Below, piece by piece: positions 15,036 to 29,924 of a stretch of DNA of 64,000 nucleotides. Below the pieces are notes generated by a model. That model was not told the DNA's origin. It ran no database searches and saw nothing but the letters and a program-made list of their open reading frames with translations. Position 1 is the stretch's first letter; every line of letters starts with the position of its first letter. Location: contig JANYDA010000001.1 of the NCBI GenBank assembly GCA_025360005.1, positions 87,144-151,143 of the forward strand, given 5' to 3'. The position numbers were made by a program, and so were the translations under genes. Source of the stretch: Fibrobacteria bacterium. Lineage in GTDB: Bacteria; Fibrobacterota; Fibrobacteria; UBA11236.

Positions 15036-16295
15036 GTGATCATTCCCTTTCTGGTATTGCTGCTTTCCGGATTTGCGGCAGCTACCCCCGATTCCCTCTC
15101 TCTGGAAGATTGCCTGGCGCTGGCGCGGGAGAGTAATCCCCGTTCCCGGCTATCCGCGAATTCGATCCTGGGTTGGGATTTGTCGCGGCAGGAACTCAAA
15201 GCGCGCAACCGGCCTCAGGTCAAGTTCAAAGGCATCTTTGAGTACGCTCCCGTCGGCAAATACTATGGGTACGATCCGGGCCTAACTAACGGCGGTCAAC
15301 TGGGCAGCCAGATAGCGGTGGAACAAACCGTTTATGACGGCGGCATCACGGGCATCAAGTCCCGGCAAGCCGATTTGGGATGGTCCCGGTCCAACCATGA
15401 GCAAAAATTGGCCGGGCTGGATCTGGAATACGATGTCACGCAGGCATTCACCGAGGTATTGCGGCTGCAAGAGGATTCGGCCCTGAAACAAACCGGCTTG
15501 GCAAGGCTGCGGGAATACTCCGGCCTGGTCGAGCGGATGCATGCCGGAGGCCAAGCCGGGTATACCGACTTGCTCAAGACGCGCATCCATGTTTCCGAAT
15601 CCGAATCGGCGGCCAAGCTTACCAATGCCGATCTGGAAAGCGCAAAATACGCCCTGGCGGAACTCATCGGTCTGGAGCCGTCCGCGTCCATCCAGGTGAA
15701 AGGCGAATTGGATGCGCCGTTCGATCCGATGCCGTTGGATACCACCGTGAATGCGGATTGGAAGATCGCGGAACTGGAAACGCAAATCGCCGACTTGGAC
15801 GTAGCCGCGGCGCGCAGCGAGTGGAAGCCCACTCTTTCCGTGGCGGCGGATATCGGGTTGCTCACCTCCATCGACAATCTGAAAGCGGCGCCGCAGGACC
15901 GGGCCAATATGCTGGGGGCATCCGTGGGGATGCATTTGGACATGCCCATTTTTTCCTGGGGATTGGCAAAGACCCATCTCCTACAGAGCCGGCTCGCCGT
16001 GGAGAACGCGCGGTGGCAATGGCGGGCGCATCGGCGGGAACTGCTCTTCGGATACCGCAAAGCCCTGATGCAATGGGAAGCGGCGCGGGATCATCTGAGC
16101 GGATTGCGGGCCGATCTCACCGCGGCCAAGGACAATTTCGACCTGACCAAGGCGAAATACGCGGGCGGTTCGGGACTGGCCTCCGAGGTCCTGGACGCCC
16201 ATCAGCTCTGGGTGGAAACGCAAGCCAGCCTGCTGCAGGCCCGGGCCGATTTACGGAACCTGGGCGCCAGGCTGAAGCGGTTGGAAGCCCGTTAG
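15036..16295 (+). CDS. TolC-family outer-membrane efflux factor (CzcC-like)
   Basis: 419 aa. N-terminal signal, LSLEDCLALARESNP, OEP repeat structure. Precedes the MFP and RND genes in czcCBA order. GTG start. Confidence 0.85.
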   Translation: MIIPFLVLLLSGFAAATPDSLSLEDCLALARESNPRSRLSANSILGWDLSRQELKARNRPQVKFKGIFEYAPVGKYYGYDPGLTNGGQLGSQIAVEQTVYDGGITGIKSRQADLGWSRSNHEQKLAGLDLEYDVTQAFTEVLRLQEDSALKQTGLARLREYSGLVERMHAGGQAGYTDLLKTRIHVSESESAAKLTNADLESAKYALAELIGLEPSASIQVKGELDAPFDPMPLDTTVNADWKIAELETQIADLDVAAARSEWKPTLSVAADIGLLTSIDNLKAAPQDRANMLGASVGMHLDMPIFSWGLAKTHLLQSRLAVENARWQWRAHRRELLFGYRKALMQWEAARDHLSGLRADLTAAKDNFDLTKAKYAGGSGLASEVLDAHQLWVETQASLLQARADLRNLGARLKRLEAR

Positions 16296-16308
16296 GGCGG
16301 ATGGGGAG

Positions 16309-17319
16309 ATGCGCGTGAAGGCTTATGGAAAAGGAAAATCGATATCCTTGCTTTGCCTGCTGATTCCATTGGGTTGTTCCCGGCACGCCAAGGAAGCGGA
16401 AGAGGCCGCCGCCGCGGCGCCCATCGTCGAGGTCAAATTGGACTCCCTGGTATCGGGCCCGGCCGAGGATGCGCTTTTTGCCACCGGCCGCACCGATGTT
16501 TTGGGCAAGGAGAACGTGGCCTCCCCGATCGCCGGAAAGCTGTTGGCCTTGAAGGCATCCGAAGGCGCTTCGGTAAAACCGGGGCAAGTGGTGGCCTTGG
16601 TGCGCACCAAGGAATCGGAATCCGCCGTGGAGGGAGCGCAGGCATTGTTGAATGGAGCGGGAAGCGATGCCGAAAGACGGGAAGCCAAAAGGGCCTTGGA
16701 CCTGGCTCTGGCTACCCAAAGCACCCTTTCGTTGCGGGCCAAACAAGGCGGCGTAGTGGCCAGCCGCCTGGCCCAGGAGGGAGAGCAGATCGTCGAAAAC
16801 CAAAGTCTGATGCTGATCCTGGATCTGAGTACCCTGGATTTCCAGGCAGAGGTTCCCTTGTCCGGAATCGAACGCATCCGCGTGGGGCAGTCGGCCACGG
16901 TCAGCTTGCAGGCATTGCCGGGATCGGTTTTTTCCGCGCAGGTCCAGGCCATTCTGCCCCAGATCCAGACGGCCAGCCAGACCTTGTCCATCCGGCTGCG
17001 CTTCACGGGCCGGCCGGGCGATGGGATGCGCGGGGTTTTGAAAGCCGATATGGCGGGCGAAGCGCGTGTCATCCTTTCCACCCGGCCCAATTCGCTCTTG
17101 GCCCCCAAAACCGCCTTGTTGCGCAGCGATGAAGACGGCAGTTATTCCCTGGTGACGGTGGGTCCGGATTCCTTGGCGCACATAGTGAAGGTCAAACCCG
17201 GGTCTCCGCAGGGAGAGCGCGTGGAAATCCTGGGCGATGGTTTACGCCCGGGCCTGCGGGTGGTGACCCAGGGCCAGCATGGCTTGGCGGATTCCACCAA
17301 GGTCAAACCCGTTCCATGA
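16309..17319 (+). CDS. RND efflux periplasmic adaptor (membrane fusion protein, HlyD/CzcB-like lipoprotein)
   Basis: 336 aa; lipobox LGCS; biotinyl-lipoyl-like and beta-barrel MFP regions. Overlaps the RND gene start by 4 nt. Confidence 0.85.
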   Translation: MRVKAYGKGKSISLLCLLIPLGCSRHAKEAEEAAAAAPIVEVKLDSLVSGPAEDALFATGRTDVLGKENVASPIAGKLLALKASEGASVKPGQVVALVRTKESESAVEGAQALLNGAGSDAERREAKRALDLALATQSTLSLRAKQGGVVASRLAQEGEQIVENQSLMLILDLSTLDFQAEVPLSGIERIRVGQSATVSLQALPGSVFSAQVQAILPQIQTASQTLSIRLRFTGRPGDGMRGVLKADMAGEARVILSTRPNSLLAPKTALLRSDEDGSYSLVTVGPDSLAHIVKVKPGSPQGERVEILGDGLRPGLRVVTQGQHGLADSTKVKPVP

Positions 17320-20300
17320 ATCCGGGTTTCTCGCCGCTGGGTTTCCTGCGCAGGCACGCCAAGGCATTCCTCTTCCTCACCCTGGTACTGGCCCTTTCCG
17401 GCGCCGTCATGTCCGGCCTGATGCCGGTGTCCCTGTTCCCGGATATCACCTTCCCCCGCATCACCATCCTTGCGGACAACGGCGAACAACCCGTGGAACG
17501 GATGATGGCGGAGGTGACCAAGCCCTTGGAAGAGGTTTCCAGTTCGCTTCCTGGCATCCGGGAAGTCCGTTCCGTCACCGGCCGGGGTTCCACGGAAATC
17601 TCCCTCTTCCTGGATTGGAATGCCAACGTCCTGCAATCCCTGCAAACCCTGCAGGGGAAAATATCCGCCATCCGCAATACCCTTCCGCCCTCCGCGGCCG
17701 TGCAGGCCGAGCAGATGACGGTTTCGGTTTTTCCGGTGATGGGATATAGCCTGGCGTCTTCCCAACGCAGCCTGGTGGAACTCCGGGATATCGCCCTTTA
17801 CCAGATCCGTCCCGCGCTGCTGCGGGTGCCCGGAGTGGCGAAGGTGGAGATCACCGGCGGCAAGACGCGGGAGTACCTGGTGGCCTGCCGGCCCGACAAG
17901 CTGCAAAGCTACGGGATCACGCCCTTGCAAGTATCGGAAGCCATTTCCAAATCGAACCAGGTCTCCGCTTCCGGGCTCCTGGAAGACAATTACCAGATTT
18001 ACCTGACCCTGGCTTCGGAAAGCCTGCAAGGCTTGGAAGGGATCCTCAAAGCGACCGTTGCGGTCAAGAACGGAGTGCCCATTCCGGTATCCGCGGTCGC
18101 GGAAGTGCGGAGTTCCATCCAGGACGAACTCATCCGCACCACCGCCCAAGGGGGCGAAGCGGTCCTCATCACCGTGCTGAAACAACCGCAAGGCAGCACG
18201 GTGAGCATCGGCGCGGAAATCGCGGCGCGCTTTTCGGGATTGAAGCTGCCGCCGGATATCCATGTCGAAAACTTCTACGATCAGGGCGATTTCATTCGCG
18301 GATCGATCTCGTCAACCAAGGACAGCATTCTCATCGGCATGGCGCTGGCCATGATCGTCCTCTTCTTTTTCCTGCGTAGCTGGCGCGTTACCCTGGTGAT
18401 AGCCATCGTGGTTCCCTGCACCTTGGCGGCTACCTTCGCCATCCTGCATATGCTGGGCCAATCGGTGAACATCATGACCTTGGGCGGCATCGCGGCCGCG
18501 GTGGGGCTGCTCATCGACGATTCGATCGTCGTGCTGGAAAACATCTTCTACCACATGGCCCATGGGGAAGCCCAGCAAGCCGTTTCCCAGGAGGGGTTCC
18601 GCAAAGCCGCGGATCTCTCCCTCAAGGAAATGTCCGCCGCCATCCTGGGATCCACCGCGACCACGCTGGTCATCTATATCCCTTTGGCTTTCCTGGGCGG
18701 ACTCACCGGCAGCTTCTTCGCGCCCCTTTCCATAACCATGGTCATCGCTCTCACCTTGTCATTCGTCCTCTCGGTAACGCTGACGCCGCTGCTGGCTTCC
18801 AAGTTCATCGGGAAAAAGGATATCGAAAGGGAACGGAAAAAGGAAGGGCGGCATTCCGCCTTCGGCGCCCGCTACGAAAGGCTCCTCCACGGCCTGTTGG
18901 GGTTGAAATGGCTTATCGTCCCGGCCGCCGTGATCGTTCTGGCGGGAACTTGGCTTATCTACCGTAACGTAGGCAGCGGGTTCCTGCCGGACATGGACGA
19001 AGGGACCTTTATCCTCGACTACGAATCGCCTCCCGGAACCTCGCTCGCGGAAACGGGCCGTATGCTGGCGAAGGTGGACCGGATCCTGATGGCCATCCCG
19101 GAAGTGGAATCCTACTCCTGCCGCACCGGGACGCAGTTGGGATTTTTCCTGACCGAGCCCAACTCCGGGGACTATACCGTCAAGCTCCGAAAGCAACGCG
19201 CCCGCGGGATAGAAGACGTGATCTCCGAGGTCCGGGGCAAAATCGAGGGCAGCCTGCCTACGTTGAGGGTGGATTTCGGCCAATTGATGGCGGACGTCAT
19301 CGGCGATTTGGCCAACAATCCCTCCCCCATCGAGATCAAGATTTTCGGCGAAGACCAGGCCCTGGTGCAAAATACGGCCAAGGAAGTGAAAGCCAAGATA
19401 GAATCGGTGCACGGCGTGGTGGACGCATTCGCAGGCATAGTGATTTCAGGCCCGTCTTTCTTGATCCATATCGACGAACGCAAAGCCGCCCTGGCCGGAT
19501 TCGCGCCCGGAGAAGCGGCGGAGAACCTGGAGATAGTCCAAAGCGGCAAAGCGGATTCCCATGTCCAAATCGGAGAAAAACTCATTCCCATCCGCGTACG
19601 TTACCCGGACGAGTACCGCGGCAGCATGGAAAAGCTGAAGGGCCTGGTACTGCTGACCGCGCAGGGAAATCCGGTCCCGCTCAACCGGATCGCGGATTTC
19701 GAAGTGGTGCCGGGCCAGGCGGAATTGCGCCGGAACGGACTACGGCCTTTCGTCGCCGTTACGGCCCGCATCGAAGGCCGGGATCTGGGCAGCACGGTGG
19801 CCGAAATCCAGAGCCTGCTCAAAAAGGACCTCCGGCTTCCGCCCGGGATGAGCCTGGAATTCGGCGGCCTGTACGAAACGCAGCAGGAATCCTTCCTGGG
19901 TTTGCTGTGGGTAGCCGTGATCGCCGTACTGTTGGTTTTCGCGGTCCTGCTCATCGAGTTCCGGGAATTCACGGTCCCGGTTTCCATCCTCATCATCAAT
20001 GCCATGTCCCTCTTCGGGGTGGTCGCCGCCTTATGGATCACCGGGGTCAGTTTCAACGTTTCGAGTTTCGTCGGTTTGATCATGATCATCGGCATCGTCG
20101 CCGAGAACGCGGTCTTCCTGATGCATTATGTCCACCTGGCCCAGGCCGAGGGCATGGATCTGGAAGCCGCATTGGTGCATGCGGTCCGCATCCGCACGCG
20201 GCCTATCCTGATGACCATGTTGGCGGCGGTATCCGCGCTGTTACCCCTGTCCCTGGGCTTGGGAGCCGGGTCCCAGATGCAACAACCGCTCGCCATCGCC

Positions 20301-20399
20301 GTAATCGGCGGTTTCGCGATATCCAGCTTTCTATTGCTGTTCGGACTCCCGATGGTCTACTTGATCCTCAAAGGCGGAAGCGCGAACCGGACCGGCTGA
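17316..20399 (+). CDS. Heavy-metal-efflux-type RND permease (CzcA/CusA family)
   Basis: 1027 aa; 12-TM AcrB/CzcA architecture. N-terminus GFLRRHAKAFLFLTLVLALSGAV…LFPDITFPRITIL is typical of the CzcA/CusA HME family. Confidence 0.9.
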   Translation: MNPGFSPLGFLRRHAKAFLFLTLVLALSGAVMSGLMPVSLFPDITFPRITILADNGEQPVERMMAEVTKPLEEVSSSLPGIREVRSVTGRGSTEISLFLDWNANVLQSLQTLQGKISAIRNTLPPSAAVQAEQMTVSVFPVMGYSLASSQRSLVELRDIALYQIRPALLRVPGVAKVEITGGKTREYLVACRPDKLQSYGITPLQVSEAISKSNQVSASGLLEDNYQIYLTLASESLQGLEGILKATVAVKNGVPIPVSAVAEVRSSIQDELIRTTAQGGEAVLITVLKQPQGSTVSIGAEIAARFSGLKLPPDIHVENFYDQGDFIRGSISSTKDSILIGMALAMIVLFFFLRSWRVTLVIAIVVPCTLAATFAILHMLGQSVNIMTLGGIAAAVGLLIDDSIVVLENIFYHMAHGEAQQAVSQEGFRKAADLSLKEMSAAILGSTATTLVIYIPLAFLGGLTGSFFAPLSITMVIALTLSFVLSVTLTPLLASKFIGKKDIERERKKEGRHSAFGARYERLLHGLLGLKWLIVPAAVIVLAGTWLIYRNVGSGFLPDMDEGTFILDYESPPGTSLAETGRMLAKVDRILMAIPEVESYSCRTGTQLGFFLTEPNSGDYTVKLRKQRARGIEDVISEVRGKIEGSLPTLRVDFGQLMADVIGDLANNPSPIEIKIFGEDQALVQNTAKEVKAKIESVHGVVDAFAGIVISGPSFLIHIDERKAALAGFAPGEAAENLEIVQSGKADSHVQIGEKLIPIRVRYPDEYRGSMEKLKGLVLLTAQGNPVPLNRIADFEVVPGQAELRRNGLRPFVAVTARIEGRDLGSTVAEIQSLLKKDLRLPPGMSLEFGGLYETQQESFLGLLWVAVIAVLLVFAVLLIEFREFTVPVSILIINAMSLFGVVAALWITGVSFNVSSFVGLIMIIGIVAENAVFLMHYVHLAQAEGMDLEAALVHAVRIRTRPILMTMLAAVSALLPLSLGLGAGSQMQQPLAIAVIGGFAISSFLLLFGLPMVYLILKGGSANRTG

Positions 20400-22539: not shown

Positions 22540-22615
<76 letters not shown>

Positions 22616-22674: not shown

Positions 22675-23643
22675 ATGCCGCCCCACTCCCCCATTCCCGA
22701 CCCGGCCATTCCCATGGAAGACGGGTATTTGGCCCACCTGCGCCTGGAAAAAAGGCTCAGTCAGGAAACGGTTTCCGCCTACCTTTCGGACCTGCGGCTT
22801 TTTTTCCGGCAGGCAACCCCGCCCCCGCCCAAGCCCGCAGCAATGGGGCTGGCGACCCTGACGCTTCCCAACCTGCGCGCGTTCATCCGGAGCCTGGTGG
22901 AATTGGGCTTCGCGTCCGCCAGCATTTCCAGGTATCTCTCCGCGCTCAAAAGTTATACCGGGTATCTTGCGGATGAAAACCTGATCGCCGGGGATCCTAT
23001 CCAAGGTTTGCAAGGTCCGCGCCAACAGCGTTACAAACCGCAGAGCCTTTCCCGCCGGGACATCGAAGCCTTGTACGATTCCCTGGATGCGGCCGTGCTG
23101 CGCCGGGACGCAGGGGCAAGGCGCGACCTGTGCCTGGTGGAATTGCTGTACGGACTGGGCCTCCGCATTTCCGAAGCCACCGGCCTCAAACTGGATCAGA
23201 TCAATCCGCCGGAGGGCGTGGTGCTGGTGCAAGGCAAAGGCAAAAAGCAACGCCTGGTTCCCTTGGGGGGCAAAGTCGCCCTGTCCATCCGCGCCTACCT
23301 GGAGAGCGATTGGGACGCCAAGGGCCGCACCGAAACCTTGCTGCTCAATCGTTTCGGACGCAGCCTTTCCCGCATGGGCGCCTGGAAAATAGTGCAGCGC
23401 ATCTGCGCGCGGGCGGAGATCCGCATCGCCGTTTCCCCGCATACTTTCCGGCATTCCTTCGCCACCCATTTGATAGAGGCGGGCGCCGATTTGCGATCGG
23501 TACAGGAGATGCTGGGGCATGCCGACATCAGCACCACCCAGATCTACACCCATCTCGATCAGGCATACCTGCGGGAAGTGCATGGCAGCTTCCATCCGCG
23601 CAACCGCCGGGTGCCTGGGGCCGCCCAGCTTCCCAAAAATTGA
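22675..23643 (+). CDS. Tyrosine site-specific recombinase, XerC/XerD family
   Basis: 322 aa. N-terminal SAM-like core-binding domain. Catalytic region with R…HTFRHSFATHL…LGHADISTTQIYTHL, including the catalytic Tyr. Confidence 0.9.
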   Translation: MPPHSPIPDPAIPMEDGYLAHLRLEKRLSQETVSAYLSDLRLFFRQATPPPPKPAAMGLATLTLPNLRAFIRSLVELGFASASISRYLSALKSYTGYLADENLIAGDPIQGLQGPRQQRYKPQSLSRRDIEALYDSLDAAVLRRDAGARRDLCLVELLYGLGLRISEATGLKLDQINPPEGVVLVQGKGKKQRLVPLGGKVALSIRAYLESDWDAKGRTETLLLNRFGRSLSRMGAWKIVQRICARAEIRIAVSPHTFRHSFATHLIEAGADLRSVQEMLGHADISTTQIYTHLDQAYLREVHGSFHPRNRRVPGAAQLPKN

Positions 23644-23787: not shown

Positions 23788-25212
23788 ATGGAACGGCTCG
23801 GAGGGAGAACGAAAATCATGCATTCGATCCTGCGCAATTCTTGTTTTGCCGCCGCTTTGGCCATGCTACCCGCTGCGGCGCAGATTCCCACCGGCGTCAC
23901 CTTCGAGACCTTTTACGACGTGGCCAAGATCTCTTTCACGCAGCCCACTTTCGTGGGACCGGTTCCGGGCGATCCGGATCAATTGATCGTGATCGAGCGC
24001 GCCGGGAAGGTCTCGCGTCTGGTCAAGTCCGCCTCCGGCTATGAGAAGAAAGCCTGGTTCTCCGTGGACCCGGACACCGCCACGCATTGGGACGGAGTCT
24101 GGACGGTGGAGTTCCATCCGAAATTCCTCCAGAACCATCTCTTCTACGTTCTTTACCGTCAAAAGATCAACGCCACCCGATCCGTGATCGAGGAATGGAA
24201 GGCCGATGCGGATCTGGCCAACCCGGTCAAGCTCCGCTCCGTCATGGAGTTCGACCAGAAAGGCATTCATTCCTCCGGCGACATGAAGTTCGGGCCGGAC
24301 GGATACCTGTATTCCTCCCAAGGCGATCGCCAGCAAAGCGGCCAGGATCTGAACGAAACCTGGGGCAAGATGCTCCGCATCGACGTGGACAAGAAGGATC
24401 CCGGGCTGGAATACGCCATCCCCGCGGACAACCCTTTCCGCACGCAGGCGGGAACGCGCGCCGAGATCTATGCCTTGGGATTCCGCATGCCTTGGCGCAT
24501 GAGCTTCGACAAATTGAACGGGGATCTGTTCCTGGGCGACGTGGGGGAAACCACCCATGAGGAAATCAACCTCGTCACCAAGGGCTCCAATTACGGCGCC
24601 GGAATCGTGGAAGGCAATTGCGCCACCAACTGCGCCAAGCTGACGGACCCGCTGGTGGCGGAAGCGCGGACGGCTGCGCAATGCGTCATCGGCGGATTCG
24701 TATACCGAGCGGATCCGACTTCGAAATTCTACGGGATCTACCTGTTCGGGGACTATGCCATCAAGAAGATTTACGCCGGCCGATTGAATGCCGCCAAGAC
24801 CGCCTTCTCGGAAGTGGTCTCCGTGGCGGACGCCATGCCCGGAAACGTCTCAGCCCTGGGCCAGGACGGTCGAGGCAATTTCTACGCCGCCATGTATACG
24901 GAAACCGGCGCGTCCCTTGCCACCCAGATCTACCGGCTTAAGCACGCGGAATTGCGGCCCGAAGCCAGCGTGGGCATCCTGTCGCGTACATCACCGGGGA
25001 TCCAAGGTAACGGAAATGTTACCTCGGATGCGGGCGGTTACCGCGTTTTCTCCTTGGATGGCAAAGCGCTGGGGCGGATAGAGTTCCCGAGCGGCCCGGA
25101 ATCCGGTAGCCGGGCAAGCGGCGAAACCGGAAACAAATCCGGCGCCAACGTGCGTATCTTCCGCGATGAGAACACCGGTCGCATACGAAAGTTTATCCTC
25201 CCCTCGCCGTAA
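23788..25212 (+). CDS. PQQ-dependent soluble sugar (aldose/sorbosone) dehydrogenase-family beta-propeller with C-terminal sorting-domain-like tail
   Basis: GKMLRIDVD…IPADNPF motif of the sGDH/YliI family; signal peptide; C-terminal ~70-aa tail resembling a T9SS-type CTD. Alternative start at Met 11 (23818). Confidence 0.7.
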   Translation: MERLGGRTKIMHSILRNSCFAAALAMLPAAAQIPTGVTFETFYDVAKISFTQPTFVGPVPGDPDQLIVIERAGKVSRLVKSASGYEKKAWFSVDPDTATHWDGVWTVEFHPKFLQNHLFYVLYRQKINATRSVIEEWKADADLANPVKLRSVMEFDQKGIHSSGDMKFGPDGYLYSSQGDRQQSGQDLNETWGKMLRIDVDKKDPGLEYAIPADNPFRTQAGTRAEIYALGFRMPWRMSFDKLNGDLFLGDVGETTHEEINLVTKGSNYGAGIVEGNCATNCAKLTDPLVAEARTAAQCVIGGFVYRADPTSKFYGIYLFGDYAIKKIYAGRLNAAKTAFSEVVSVADAMPGNVSALGQDGRGNFYAAMYTETGASLATQIYRLKHAELRPEASVGILSRTSPGIQGNGNVTSDAGGYRVFSLDGKALGRIEFPSGPESGSRASGETGNKSGANVRIFRDENTGRIRKFILPSP

Positions 25213-25312
25213 GCACCCCAACCGCGGCAATCTTGCCGCGGGTTTCCGGCGGAAACCCATTCCCAAGACCATACCCTCCGCGTGGATCCTTCAGCGGTGG
25301 AATCCGCATCGA

Positions 25313-26275
25313 TCAAACACCCGACCCGCGCGGATGCAACCGCTTAACAAGCCCGTCCAGGTTCCCGAAGCAACCGTACAGCAGGACCAGCATCAACAAA
25401 GCGAACCAGATCACCGGACCGAAGGCCAGGCCGATGAACACATGCATGCCCAGTCCCACCCACAGCGCCGACTTGCGCGTGAACGGGAGCAGGAACCAAA
25501 GCGGCGCCCCGGTTTCAAAAGCCAGCACCACGTATTGCAGCACCGGCCAGGCGGAATACGGCAGGCTCCTGGCTATCCAATAGGAAGCCCGCGTCTGATA
25601 GGTATCGAACAGATGCGTCCATAGCACATGGCTGTTACTGAGCCAATCCCCGTGGATCTTGCTGATGCCGGAAGCCATATACAACGTCACGAGCAAAGCC
25701 TGGAAGAACCGGATGTTGCCCCAGGTCACCCTGGGTTCCTCCGCTCCCGGGCCGCGCTTGCGGAAACGCCTCCGGGCATCGACTCCGTATGCGCACCCGC
25801 TTGGCGTCAGGAACAGCGCCACCGCCAATACCGCTCCCAGCTTGCTGACGGTAAAAGCCGCCAGCCTGTCCGCCATCGCCAGGTATAAAAGGCATAGCGC
25901 GAAAATGCCGGTCGCGAGGCGTGTCATGAATCCCGCCGACACGCAAAGGCCCGCGGCTGCCGTGACGGCGCATATGGCGATAGCGCCCCACAAGGGCGGC
26001 GGCGGAAAGTACCAAGGCTGGCGCCAATCACGGTGGCCCAGATCGGGAACCTGGAACCCATGCTGGGTAAGCCACTCGCCGGGATGCATCAGCCTGGAAC
26101 TCAGGAATCCGAGTATCGCCAAGGGGATTAACGCGCGCAGGAATTCCAGGCGGAGGGCGGGCTGCGCCGCGAAAAAGCGATCGATCCGTTTCCGCCCGGC
26201 GGCCGCGACCGCCGAACCCATCCGCAATCGCCGTCCCTGCGAAGCTTTCATTCCCGTTCGCGGCAGCGTTTCCAA
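25313..26275 (-). CDS. HTTM-domain (vitamin-K-dependent gamma-carboxylase-like) integral membrane protein
   Basis: 320 aa, polytopic, with HTTM-type blocks (…FLRALIPLAILGF…, …WGNIRFFQALLVTLYMASGISKIHGDWL…). Start uncertain, with several in-frame Met. Overlaps the upstream ORF. Confidence 0.7.
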   Translation of the reverse strand: METLPRTGMKASQGRRLRMGSAVAAAGRKRIDRFFAAQPALRLEFLRALIPLAILGFLSSRLMHPGEWLTQHGFQVPDLGHRDWRQPWYFPPPPLWGAIAICAVTAAAGLCVSAGFMTRLATGIFALCLLYLAMADRLAAFTVSKLGAVLAVALFLTPSGCAYGVDARRRFRKRGPGAEEPRVTWGNIRFFQALLVTLYMASGISKIHGDWLSNSHVLWTHLFDTYQTRASYWIARSLPYSAWPVLQYVVLAFETGAPLWFLLPFTRKSALWVGLGMHVFIGLAFGPVIWFALLMLVLLYGCFGNLDGLVKRLHPRGSGV

Positions 26276-26874
26276 ATCGCATTCTCCGAAGATTCATAAA
26301 GGGTTTTCACGGCCGCCGCCGGGTAGTCCGATAGAGGTCTGCGCGCATAGCGTTGCGCGCCTTCCTCCGGCCTGGGAATCGGGGTCATGGCACTGACGAT
26401 GCGGACCCCGCCTATGAGCCCTACATCCGGCTCCTTACCGGCCGCTTCCAAGGCGGCAACCCGGGCATTGTGGGCCCGGATCAGAAAGCGATCCAAATGC
26501 CCCATCACCTTGCCGTTGGCGTGATAGAAATAGACGGCGCGCTGGAAGCGGTTTTCCTTGTTTCCCGCCTGGATGGGAAAATGCGCGTCGACATCCATCT
26601 CCCGGAACAGCCCGTCCCGGCAAGACCAACCCAGGACGCGGAACTCCATATCCGCCTTTTTGGATTCGGTGAATAAGCCGGCCACTTGGGTGAAATAGAG
26701 TATGGGGCCGGGGACCCAGGCATAGGCGAGCCCGCTCCGCCACTCCCCGATGATCACTACCAGAAAATACAACAGCGATCCCGCTGCCAGCGCGTACCGG
26801 AAAACGGCGGGCCCGGGATTGGCCACCGTCGCCTTGTTTTCCCCTGCCGCGATGCTTGCCGTACCCCTGGCCAT
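26248..26874 (-). CDS. Hypothetical single-TM protein co-transcribed with, and overlapping, the HTTM gene
   Basis: 208 aa with one N-terminal TM helix (FRYALAAGSLLYFLVVIIGEW). No recognisable domain. 28-nt overlap with the HTTM ORF. Confidence 0.45.
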   Translation of the reverse strand: MARGTASIAAGENKATVANPGPAVFRYALAAGSLLYFLVVIIGEWRSGLAYAWVPGPILYFTQVAGLFTESKKADMEFRVLGWSCRDGLFREMDVDAHFPIQAGNKENRFQRAVYFYHANGKVMGHLDRFLIRAHNARVAALEAAGKEPDVGLIGGVRIVSAMTPIPRPEEGAQRYARRPLSDYPAAAVKTLYESSENAIWKRCRERE

Positions 26875-26961
26875 TGCCCTTGCCTTGAACCGTGAATGCG
26901 GGGTAACTTACTTAATCCTTTCCCGGATCAAATCCGGACGGCGCAGCCAAGCCGTGAAAAT

Positions 26962-27861
26962 TCAGGCAGCTACCGGCTGCCCCATGCCGGCCATGGTCTC
27001 GCAAATGCTCTGCAGCCTCAGGATGGCGGCCTTGTCACCGCGGTATTTGCAGGCCAGTTCCTTGCGGTTCTCCCAGAACTTACCGTTGACGCCCGTCAAT
27101 TCCGGAGCGGCAGCCAACCAAACGGCCGTATCCGCGCCTTCGGAGGGCGTCCTTCCGCCCAGCTTGGAAACCATGCCGAACAGGAATTTCTCGAACCCCT
27201 TGGCGCTGCGGTTCAAATCCGTTTTCACCAGACCCGGGCTCATGGCGTTGGCGGTGACCCCGCTTCCGCGCACTTGGTCCGCCAAGGCCCAGGTGAGCAT
27301 CCTATCGGCCTGCTTGGCGGCGGCATACAGGTTGGCGCCATTGTACTTTCGTTGCTTGTACTCCACATCGTTGAGGTTCAGTCCTTTCGCGAAAGTGGAC
27401 GCGATATTGATTATGCGCGCATCCGGCGCGTCCGCTCCGTTCTTGGCCGCCGCCGACAAGGCCGGCAATAGCAATTGCGTCAGCAGATGCGGCGCCACCA
27501 CATTGGTCATCCAGATCAGATCGATGCCGTCCGGCCCCAGCTGACGATCGGATGACCAGGATCCCGCGTTGTTGATCAGGATGTCCAGCTTGGAATACCT
27601 GTCCAGAAAAGCCTTGGCGAAGGAACGCGTCGAGGCAAGCTTGCCCAGATCCACCTGCATGATGGAAAGGGAGGCCGAGGGCGCGTCCGCCTGCAACTCC
27701 CGCTTCACCGCATCCGCCTTGATCAGGTTGCGGCAGGCCAGGATCACGTCCGCCCCTTGCCTGGCCAGGCCGCGGGCGATTTCCTTGCCTATCCCGGAAG
27801 ACGCACCCGTGACGATTGCGAGCTTGCCTTTTAGGCCGTAGGCGGTTTTAGGATCGGACAT
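26962..27861 (-). CDS. Short-chain dehydrogenase/reductase (SDR) family oxidoreductase
   Basis: TGASSGIGKEIARGLA (Rossmann TGxxxGxG), NNAG, catalytic YAAAK. 299 aa. Confidence 0.9.
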   Translation of the reverse strand: MSDPKTAYGLKGKLAIVTGASSGIGKEIARGLARQGADVILACRNLIKADAVKRELQADAPSASLSIMQVDLGKLASTRSFAKAFLDRYSKLDILINNAGSWSSDRQLGPDGIDLIWMTNVVAPHLLTQLLLPALSAAAKNGADAPDARIINIASTFAKGLNLNDVEYKQRKYNGANLYAAAKQADRMLTWALADQVRGSGVTANAMSPGLVKTDLNRSAKGFEKFLFGMVSKLGGRTPSEGADTAVWLAAAPELTGVNGKFWENRKELACKYRGDKAAILRLQSICETMAGMGQPVAA

Positions 27862-27895
27862 GGGATGCTCCCCGGTTTCAGGTTTCAGGTTTTAC

Positions 27896-27915
27896 CTAGC
27901 TATGAAATTAGCTAG
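27896..27915. promoter_or_regulatory. Candidate HxlR operator: inverted repeat CTAGCTA-tgaaat-TAGCTAG
   Basis: Perfect 7-bp arms with a 6-bp spacer in the 100-bp divergent hxlR/SDR intergenic region. A neighbouring triple direct repeat GGTTTCA GGTTTCA GGTTTTA lies at 27873-27893. Confidence 0.4.
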
Positions 27916-27961
27916 TCGCTATACTTTTTACAAGGACCTAACATTTTTATAGCTTGATGCC

Positions 27962-28399
27962 ATGCTGTACAAGGGGAAGAAGCTGGAAGTGAGGATGAAC
28001 GGGCGCACCTACCATTGCGCGCTGGACATCACCATGGATTACCTGGGAGGGAAATGGAAGGCCATCGCGCTCTGGTACCTGATGGGCAAGCCCCTGCGCT
28101 TCAGCGAACTGAAAAGGCGGATTCCCGAAATCACGGAGAAAATGCTTTCCCTGCAATTGAAAAACCTGGAAACGGATGGTCTGGTATCGCGCAAGGTGTT
28201 CGCGGAGGTGCCGCCGCGCGTCGAATACACCCTGACCGCGGACGGCAAAACCCTTATCCCGGCGCTCAAAGCCATGGCGAAATGGGGACGGACCAAGGCC
28301 CAGCGGGACGGGAAAATCATCGCCGTACCGCTGGAGGCGGCGCGTAAGGCGTCCCGCAGGCGTTCCGGGGCCGCGCCTAAGGCAAGGAAAAAACCTTGA
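27962..28399 (+). CDS. HxlR-family winged-helix transcriptional regulator
   Basis: CALDITMDYLGGKWKAIALWYL…RFSELKRRIPEITEKMLSLQLKNLETDGLVSRKVFAEVPPRVEYTLT, the canonical HxlR/DUF24 fold. Divergent from the SDR gene. Confidence 0.85.
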   Translation: MLYKGKKLEVRMNGRTYHCALDITMDYLGGKWKAIALWYLMGKPLRFSELKRRIPEITEKMLSLQLKNLETDGLVSRKVFAEVPPRVEYTLTADGKTLIPALKAMAKWGRTKAQRDGKIIAVPLEAARKASRRRSGAAPKARKKP

Positions 28400-29924
28400 C
28401 GGTCAGCCGATCCGTTGCGGAATTGTCGCCGTAGCCGATATCGATGTAGGTGAAATCGATGGGCTTGCCGGTGCCGGTGAAGAGCATGTAGTAGGTGTGA
28501 TCCTTGCGCCAGGTTCCCCACCAACGCAAGCGGGGCGCATAGGCATTGGGAGCCCCCGTCTGCATCTCATCCACCGCCAGGCCATAGTCGGTGTTGGCGT
28601 CGCCCACGTCCAATTGCCCCACCCCTTCCGCATTGTAGTCCATGTAGTCGGCATCGCCCTGCCCAAGGCCGCCTCCGCCCACCTTGCCGGAACCGGCGGC
28701 CTGCAAGAGGTATACCCGTGACAGCTGGGTTACCAAAGCCGAATGCACGGTCTGGCGGAGCACGGGAACCTGCATGCTGTCCAGGGGCTTGCCCAAGGCA
28801 GGGGGTGCGGGAGACAAACGGATCAGGGAAACAGTGATGTTACCCCCGGTAGCCGTCCCGGATTTGGCGAGCTTGAGGGACAATGGCGTTCCTTCTCCGG
28901 TGACGGTCAGATAATAGGCATGATCCGCTTTTGCCCCCCCGTACCACTTCATGCGCCCCGCCTTCGCGCCCTTGGCCAGGTGGATGGCCGGCCGGCCGAT
29001 GTCCACGCCCACATCGATTCCCGAAATGGAATCCGAACCGTTCCCGCCCGCAGGGAAGCCGTACTCGGCATCGACCAGGCCTCCGTCCCCCAACGCCACC
29101 GCACCGGCAGCCTTCAGCAGGTACAGTTCGCCTTTGGCCAAAGCGGTCGCGAAAGCCACCGATGCCCCTCCCGCGGGGACCTGTACGGATTCCAAGGCTT
29201 GCGGGGGGATGATCCCCGAAGTGTCCGGGGTCATTTTCAGGGTTATGCCCGGGGCCTTGGGCGTGCCGGCGGGCACGCTCAGGCTATCCCGGCGATATCC
29301 CTTTTTCACGAAGGAGACGAGATGCGGTTTCGAGGTAGCCATCCCTTTGGATAGAGCCTTGCCGGCCGCCCCCCGGCTTGCCTGGTCGGCGCGGAACAAT
29401 GCCGGACCGGAAGGCAGCTTGGCCAACCGGAACCGTTCGCTCCCCGCGCCGGTTCGCAAGGTCGCGGAATAAATCCCCAAGGGAAGATCCCGTAAGGACA
29501 CGGTCCAGGCTCCGCTGCCGGGCGGGGAAGCGAAGTCCGCGATCCGGCGACCATGGAAATCCAACAAGGAAATCACTGCGTGATCGGCGTATCCATTGAG
29601 AGTGATATTTTCGCCGCCCACGGCCATTGACGTATGCGCGGATGCCCGTTCCGGAAGGACGATGGCTGAATTTGGATCCGGGAGGATCAAGGTGAAACGC
29701 CCGTCGGGGGCGGTGGCCGCCGACGCGCCCTCCGCGCTTACGGAAACGGAATCCAAGGGCGCGTTGGATGCGGCATCGGTCACCAGTCCCGTCAAGGTGT
29801 CATTGACTTGCGCTTGGGCGCCGGCCAGGCCCAGGCAAACCAGCCCGGCCAAGAACTTATTTGGTAGCCGCCGGGCCGTCTTCTTTGGAATTGATTTCAA
29901 CGGAGCTGTTCCGGTATTCATCAT
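28377..29924 (-). CDS. Secreted protein with N-terminal carboxypeptidase-regulatory-like domain and two internal repeats
   Basis: Signal peptide; LTGLVTDAASNAPLDSVSVSAEG…DGRFTL (CarbopepD_reg-like). Two similar ~150-aa repeats (…LLKAAGAVALGDGGLVDAEYGF…KWYGGAKADHAYYLTVTG… and …LLQAAGSGKVGGGGLGQGDADYMDY…LRWWGTWRKDHTYYMLFTG…). Confidence 0.55.
   Translation of the reverse strand: MMNTGTAPLKSIPKKTARRLPNKFLAGLVCLGLAGAQAQVNDTLTGLVTDAASNAPLDSVSVSAEGASAATAPDGRFTLILPDPNSAIVLPERASAHTSMAVGGENITLNGYADHAVISLLDFHGRRIADFASPPGSGAWTVSLRDLPLGIYSATLRTGAGSERFRLAKLPSGPALFRADQASRGAAGKALSKGMATSKPHLVSFVKKGYRRDSLSVPAGTPKAPGITLKMTPDTSGIIPPQALESVQVPAGGASVAFATALAKGELYLLKAAGAVALGDGGLVDAEYGFPAGGNGSDSISGIDVGVDIGRPAIHLAKGAKAGRMKWYGGAKADHAYYLTVTGEGTPLSLKLAKSGTATGGNITVSLIRLSPAPPALGKPLDSMQVPVLRQTVHSALVTQLSRVYLLQAAGSGKVGGGGLGQGDADYMDYNAEGVGQLDVGDANTDYGLAVDEMQTGAPNAYAPRLRWWGTWRKDHTYYMLFTGTGKPIDFTYIDIGYGDNSATDRLTVKVFSLP

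Follow-up and report, generated by a model that had tools for sequence, protein, structure and literature searches.

A translationally coupled HTTM gene pair of Fibrobacterota and Myxococcota as a candidate split relative of the vitamin K-dependent carboxylase

Described HTTM systems and the locus under study

Proteins of the HTTM family are numerous in bacteria, and MloH is, to our knowledge, the only bacterial member with a defined reaction. In the vitamin K-dependent carboxylase GGCX, the pocket for vitamin K is built from helices TM5–8 of nine transmembrane (TM) helices. A cap around D222/Y227 and the lumenal loop LL9, which follows the last TM helix, close this pocket; lumenal clamp domains lie on top, and arginine and asparagine residues in these domains contact D222 (PMC12647623). 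Lys218 of GGCX is the base that deprotonates the quinol, and Trp223 stacks on it, while Asn159 and His160 bind the Glu substrate, Phe299 stacks on CO2 and Asp263 adjoins the base (PMC12647623). An AlphaFold 3 (AF3) screen has predicted complexes between adjacent HTTM proteins and DUF5819 proteins, which consist of an N-terminal TM helix and a domain (bioRxiv 10.64898/2026.08.19.745780). The modeled DUF5819–HTTM complex resembles a whole GGCX, with the TM helix superposing on a GGCX helix, the domain at the position of the clamp and Leu59/Phe60 of DUF5819 touching the vitamin K pocket, and MloH is a fused bacterial enzyme of this type (bioRxiv 10.64898/2026.08.19.745780). Here, we analyze a 64,000-nucleotide stretch of a Fibrobacteria bacterium genome (contig JANYDA010000001.1, positions 87,144 to 151,143; hereafter the window), in which a gene for an HTTM protein is preceded by a gene for a membrane-anchored partner of 208 residues.

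The overall plan, an HTTM core assisted by an anchored accessory, is either known or of recent proposal; in GGCX and MloH, the two parts are fused. What is new in the present locus is the accessory family, together with the occurrence of the module in phyla in which it had not been discussed before. As in the DUF5819–HTTM systems, the two genes are adjacent, the partner is a bitopic protein of about 200 residues with an N-terminal TM helix and one domain, and the HTTM protein carries the conserved active-site Lys/Trp. The Leu-Phe that follows the TM helix of DUF5819 also finds a parallel in L67/F68 of the partner, which occupy the same relative position and are invariant. Several features nevertheless set the two systems apart. 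Neither 16 members of the partner family (E ≤ 5) nor 20 more distant ones (E ≤ 0.1–1) matched Pfam DUF5819 or any other Pfam model, the HTTM protein lacks a DCC-like C-terminal domain, and the hosts are Fibrobacterota and Myxococcota, in contrast to the Firmicute of the published DUF5819 example. The partner family is undescribed, and sequence comparison found no link to DUF5819.

A coupled gene pair and its conservation

The initial annotation of the locus had described an overlap of 28 nt between the partner frame and the HTTM start. This value arises only if the HTTM start is placed at the earliest TTG that follows the upstream stop, which yields the longest open reading frame (ORF; 25313..26275 on the minus strand, 320 aa), and it is corrected here to a 4-nt ATGA overlap (Table 1), at which the partner frame reads ...CGG GAA TGA and the HTTM frame ...GGA ATG AAA. 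The ATGA start was also chosen by one independent public gene call on the same DNA; the NCBI gene call begins at the next Met, 26 nt past the partner stop, and gives a protein of 302 aa. Across 24 related loci, the junction is RTGA (ATGA or GTGA) in 21, and 2 more show a 1-nt overlap (TAGTG or TGATG). The 4-nt ATGA overlap is a stronger coupling signature than one of 28 nt; the coupled expression proposed earlier is thereby upheld, and with the corrected start, the partner lies outside the HTTM coding region. A scan of positions 25000–28200 for promoters and terminators returned nothing beyond chance.

Table 1. Positions of the gene pair, its junction and conserved elements, and of the adjacent upstream genes, in the window
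Feature	Position	Strand	Remarks
HTTM gene	25313..26251	(-)	312 aa from the ATGA start
K198-I-H-G-D202-W203 (HTTM protein)	25643..25660	(-)	Counterpart of GGCX Lys218...Asp222-Trp223 in the profile-to-GGCX alignment
ATGA start/stop overlap	26248..26251	(-)	Partner TGA and HTTM ATG share bases; translational-coupling junction
Partner gene	26248..26874	(-)	ORF of 208 aa, ATG start
Partner KENRFQR motif, residues 106-112	26539..26559	(-)	Alignments A1, A5
Partner Cys85	26620..26622	(-)	Conserved; second conserved cysteine Cys204 at 26263-26265
Partner post-TM segment PGPILYFTQVAGLF, residues 55-68	26671..26712	(-)	Conserved; alignments A1, A5; AlphaFold2 (AF2) helix 60-71
Partner TM helix VFRYALAAGSLLYFLVVII, residues 24-42	26749..26805	(-)	Kyte-Doolittle 19-residue window 2.08; AF2 helix 22-45
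Short-chain dehydrogenase (SDR)	26962-27861	(-)	87 nt upstream of the partner
HxlR-type regulator	27962-28399	(+)	Divergent from the SDR gene

Homologs of the partner were sought by a word-indexed search of 5.8 billion proteins, which returned 16, and by a profile search of 1.84 billion representatives, which returned 151 clusters at E ≤ 1e-3 and 82 at E ≤ 1e-30. About 30 loci were then gathered from context look-ups and from a scan of one genome per species. Because the protein is conserved across two phyla at 34–64% identity, the partner is evidently a real gene and not a chance ORF. The order partner then HTTM was found in about 23 distinct loci with differing flanks, in metagenome-assembled genomes (MAGs) of Fibrobacterota and Polyangia. 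Among the loci with an organism name, partner identity ranges from 52% to 64% in Fibrobacterota MAGs and from 34% to 38% in Polyangia MAGs (Polyangiaceae, Labilithrix and an "uncultured delta proteobacterium"). The partner had been expected to be specific to its lineage; it is genuine, but the same family accompanies HTTM in both Fibrobacterota and Myxococcota (Polyangia). In tblastn searches, an HTTM ortholog (44–70% identity) lies directly downstream of the partner wherever downstream sequence exists, so that the expected conservation of the partner beside HTTM was borne out in every lineage examined except one.

The linkage also appears when the search is started from the other gene. For two HTTM homologs (47% and 55% identity), chosen from the HTTM search alone, a gene of the partner family lies upstream in each case and overlaps HTTM by 4 nt (hmmsearch E = 6e-62 and 1e-47). 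Several HTTM and partner matches come from contigs of equal size, which implies further pairs on one contig. A distant partner subfamily, only 18–24% identical, is likewise followed by a truncated HTTM gene with a 4-nt overlap; the truncated protein matches the Pfam model at E = 1.2e-4 and the HTTM profile in hhalign with a probability of 97.7% (E = 1.4e-12). Across 17 loci, the pairwise identities of partner and HTTM protein correlate at r = 0.93, and the partner evolves faster (mean identity 45% versus 53%). When the neighbors at about 27 loci were clustered all against all, no further gene proved to be conserved. The genes that flank the pair in the window do not recur elsewhere, and the module is therefore considered to consist of two genes.

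Some individual records deserve mention. The distant subfamily (P0275, P0279, P0281 and P0282) lies on contigs of 1–1.6 kb and, at L034 (739-1592), is seen coupled to its HTTM gene; a profile search seeded with this subfamily yielded no new families and no Pfam labels. One protein of 391 aa, P0268, carries partner-like segments and then the HTTM N-terminus in a single ORF (…RRSKIAERCG…LRIEIVRIVAPLAMLGFMSGRLAHADEW…), with Arg-rich stretches that look out of frame; a frameshift in the assembly is a likelier origin for it than a true gene fusion. Pfam scans of the long and distant partner relatives revealed no natural fusion and no bridge to DUF5819 or SdpA, and a tblastn search of the HTTM protein against plasmids gave no match.

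A candidate split GGCX-like enzyme and its alternatives

The assignment of the larger protein to HTTM, made initially by inspection of the sequence, is confirmed by a match to Pfam PF05090 (E = 7e-12; 45.9 bits against a cut-off of 27.7); NCBIfam gave no match at E ≤ 0.01. The protein crosses the membrane several times and adopts the fold seen in the transmembrane domain of GGCX, which is its best structural match. The model contains about eight membrane-length helices, versus nine TM helices in GGCX. A family profile is needed to recover this relationship by sequence: a profile of 17 orthologs matches GGCX chains at E = 4e-3, and a single-sequence phmmer search against the PDB returned chance matches only. 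In the resulting alignment, SGISK198IHGD202W203 is paired with AGVKK218LDAD222W223 of GGCX. K198 and W203 are invariant in alignments of 17 and 74 sequences, and D202 is invariant in the former. Asp263 of GGCX has no clear counterpart, an invariant E246 lying nearby in a low-confidence part of the alignment. The 312-residue protein consists of the membrane core only, and no lumenal or periplasmic clamp domain is fused to it. The quinol-activating half of the GGCX site appears to be kept, and the half devoted to Glu carboxylation does not.

The partner, described from the outset as a membrane-anchored, uncharacterized protein, has a single TM segment and is without a sequence match in Pfam, NCBIfam (E ≤ 0.01), PADLOC or the PDB; the earlier statement that neither protein has an assigned function stands. 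It is predicted to be a bitopic membrane protein with an N-terminal TM helix and an alpha/beta domain of about 150 residues, and its AF2 model has a predicted local distance difference test (pLDDT) score of 78.9, with residues 75–208 mostly above 85 (85–96). Only L67, F68, F99, R109, R112 and R158 are invariant across both partner subfamilies. L67 and F68 close the conserved segment that follows the TM helix, and R109 and R112 belong to the KENRFQR motif; where the main subfamily has AGNKENRFQR, the distant one has PFGHRxRFxR, so that both arginines are retained in all aligned members. Conserved Glu and Cys residues had been suggested initially as possible sites of modification. E107, C85 and C204 are kept in the main subfamily, and E92 nearly always, the two cysteines having counterparts in all full-length members, but E107 and both cysteines are lost in the distant subfamily. 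C85 and C204 may form a disulfide in a periplasmic domain. An N-in, C-out topology is suggested because Polyangia partners have K/R-rich N-termini ahead of the TM helix and because of the conserved cysteine pair. Comparison of the partner with the GGCX lumenal domain revealed no significant similarity.

Taken together, these features lead us to propose, with a probability of roughly 0.55, that the pair constitutes a two-subunit inner-membrane enzyme, a "split" relative of the vitamin K-dependent carboxylase encoded as a self-contained, co-translated module. This reading is favored because the HTTM core stops early, while the partner offers a TM helix, a hydrophobic segment and an Arg-rich domain in the N-to-C order of GGCX. 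The genetic evidence suggests that partner and HTTM protein probably form a physical complex. Under this proposal, the HTTM protein would be the quinol-binding catalytic core, retaining the Lys-Trp pair that deprotonates the hydroquinone in GGCX, and the partner would supply the ninth TM helix in trans, oriented N-in and C-out. The invariant Leu-Phe in the membrane-interface segment might cover the quinone pocket, and the periplasmic alpha/beta domain, with R109, R112 and R158, could be placed against the active-site face, where it would bind the substrate. Both subunits would be co-translated at the ATGA junction. The substrate is probably not a Gla-type (gamma-carboxyglutamate) protein, because the residues that bind Glu in GGCX are missing and the pair has no linked substrate gene; a common periplasmic or envelope molecule is more likely. 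A more specific version, in which the module is a menaquinol- and O2-dependent split GGCX-type enzyme of Gram-negatives that acts on a periplasmic housekeeping envelope substrate, with a previously unseen accessory fold providing the ninth TM helix, a lid and an arginine site, is advanced tentatively.

Several observations weigh against a GGCX-like enzyme. By sequence, the partner is connected with neither DUF5819 nor SdpA nor any other Pfam family, and in the partner from the window, which shows little charge bias, the positive-inside signal is weak. In the catalytic core, the Glu-binding Asn159/His160 of GGCX are not kept, being aligned to T134/V135 in a high-confidence stretch, and Phe299 is aligned to an invariant H270 in a region of low posterior confidence; because of these replacements, the alignment lends no support to carboxylation as such. 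Furthermore, one Fibrobacteria lineage (L003, L004 and L015) has an intact partner without an adjacent HTTM gene, which implies either that HTTM has been displaced by an inserted cassette or that the partner is able to work without it. At L003 (6001-7114), and alike at the other two loci, the partner (52% identity) ends a sigma70–ABC–FtsX operon and is followed by a HEPN_AbiU2 gene and a BrnA-like antitoxin gene.

Among the alternatives, the maturation and export of a secreted peptide toxin or signal in the manner of SdpA/SdpB survives best, although we consider it unlikely. SdpB is itself an HTTM-type protein, and the NCBIfam and Pfam libraries both contain SdpA/SdpB models. In Bacillus subtilis, the products of sdpAB in the sdpABC operon process and release SdpC, and those of yitPO in the yitPOM operon act in the same way on YitM (PMC6818787). 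The present pair has the same gene order, with the small accessory ahead of the HTTM-type membrane protein in a single operon, and its position at the end of a sigma70–ABC–FtsX operon with 4-nt overlaps in some Fibrobacteria suggests export. However, the toxin precursor and immunity genes that are linked to SdpA–SdpB and YitP–YitO have no conserved counterpart among the clustered neighbors of the pair, and HTTM is followed by a convergent gene in the window and in several other loci. Moreover, neither protein matches any NCBIfam model at the threshold given above, the partner is also without a Pfam match, and the hosts here are Gram-negative.

A quinone redox module of the DoxD/DoxX/MauE type, in which electrons would move between the quinone pool and a periplasmic sulfur or thiol substrate with the partner cysteines as a redox pair, also seems improbable. 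Members of these families, too, reside in the membrane and function alongside a distinct anchored protein (DoxA or MauD, for example), so the overall architecture of a polytopic, quinone-associated membrane protein and a separately encoded anchored partner is alike. The partner has two conserved cysteines, and the HTTM subfamily shows weak, sub-threshold matches to DoxD, DoxX and MauE; the window's HTTM protein scores 16.3 bits against Pfam DoxD, below the cut-off of 22.7. Nevertheless, GGCX is the clear best match, the HTTM protein has no conserved cysteine of its own, and the partner is neither thioredoxin-like nor equipped with a CxxC motif, and its cysteines disappear in the distant subfamily.

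The lineage with a solitary partner also bears on the idea that the two genes are merely co-transcribed neighbors without physical interaction, the partner having an independent envelope function. This finding fits such an arrangement, which is nonetheless rather implausible considering that adjacency and the 4-nt overlap are kept across two phyla and down to 18–24% partner identity while the other neighbors change. Least credible of all is that the HTTM enzyme acts on the partner as its substrate and modifies it, for example, at E92 or E107: E92 is nearly invariant and E107 invariant in the main-subfamily alignment, but E107 is replaced in the distant subfamily (HRxRF), where the HTTM linkage is kept, the ATGA overlap implies synthesis at about 1:1, which is typical of subunits, and the HTTM protein lacks the residues with which GGCX binds Glu.

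If the more specific, menaquinol- and O2-dependent version of the proposal is correct, the strong-base quinol chemistry of GGCX would be used outside protein carboxylation. A two-gene version is experimentally tractable, since the halves can be mutated or swapped separately, and the separate halves would reveal what the non-membrane half contributes in a GGCX-type enzyme. The analysis also delineates a family of proteins, comprising about 150 clusters at 50% identity and covered by no domain database, for which it offers a specific role open to experiment. The practical value is moderate, given that an HTTM protein with an anchored partner has already been proposed for DUF5819.

Genomic surroundings of the pair

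Downstream of HTTM in the window lies a convergent gene resembling glucose/sorbosone dehydrogenases, and the downstream gene is convergent in several other loci as well. In Polyangiaceae, the pair is flanked by housekeeping genes, a release factor and a ROK kinase. The sigma70–ABC–FtsX operon mentioned above has the pair as its tail in some Fibrobacteria loci, and it is possible that in this part of the Fibrobacteria the pair is functionally linked to a MacB/Lol-like exporter. At L011 (1-3347), 4-nt overlaps connect four successive genes, which encode an ABC ATPase, an FtsX-type permease, the partner and the HTTM protein.

The SDR and HxlR genes upstream of the partner (Table 1) were considered as members of the module and rejected, as they stand beside the pair in no other locus; they probably represent an unrelated regulator–reductase unit. 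Beyond them, positions 28377-29924 encode a protein of 515 aa with a signal-peptide-like N-terminus and without a Pfam or NCBIfam match. On the other side of the pair, 60 nt separate a tRNA-Lys(CTT) gene (22540-22615, minus strand) from a tyrosine recombinase gene (22675-23643, plus strand) whose product has XerC/D-type N- and C-terminal domains. The recombinase gene could be a plain XerC/D gene, or it could point to a site of integration some 2 kb away from the pair. Approximately 5 kb from the pair, a resistance-nodulation-division (RND) efflux operon spans positions 15036-20399 and includes a pump of 1027 aa (17316-20399). RND or membrane fusion protein (MFP) genes also occur near the pair at L005, L006, L009 and L012, and, such genes being common, this proximity may be a coincidence.
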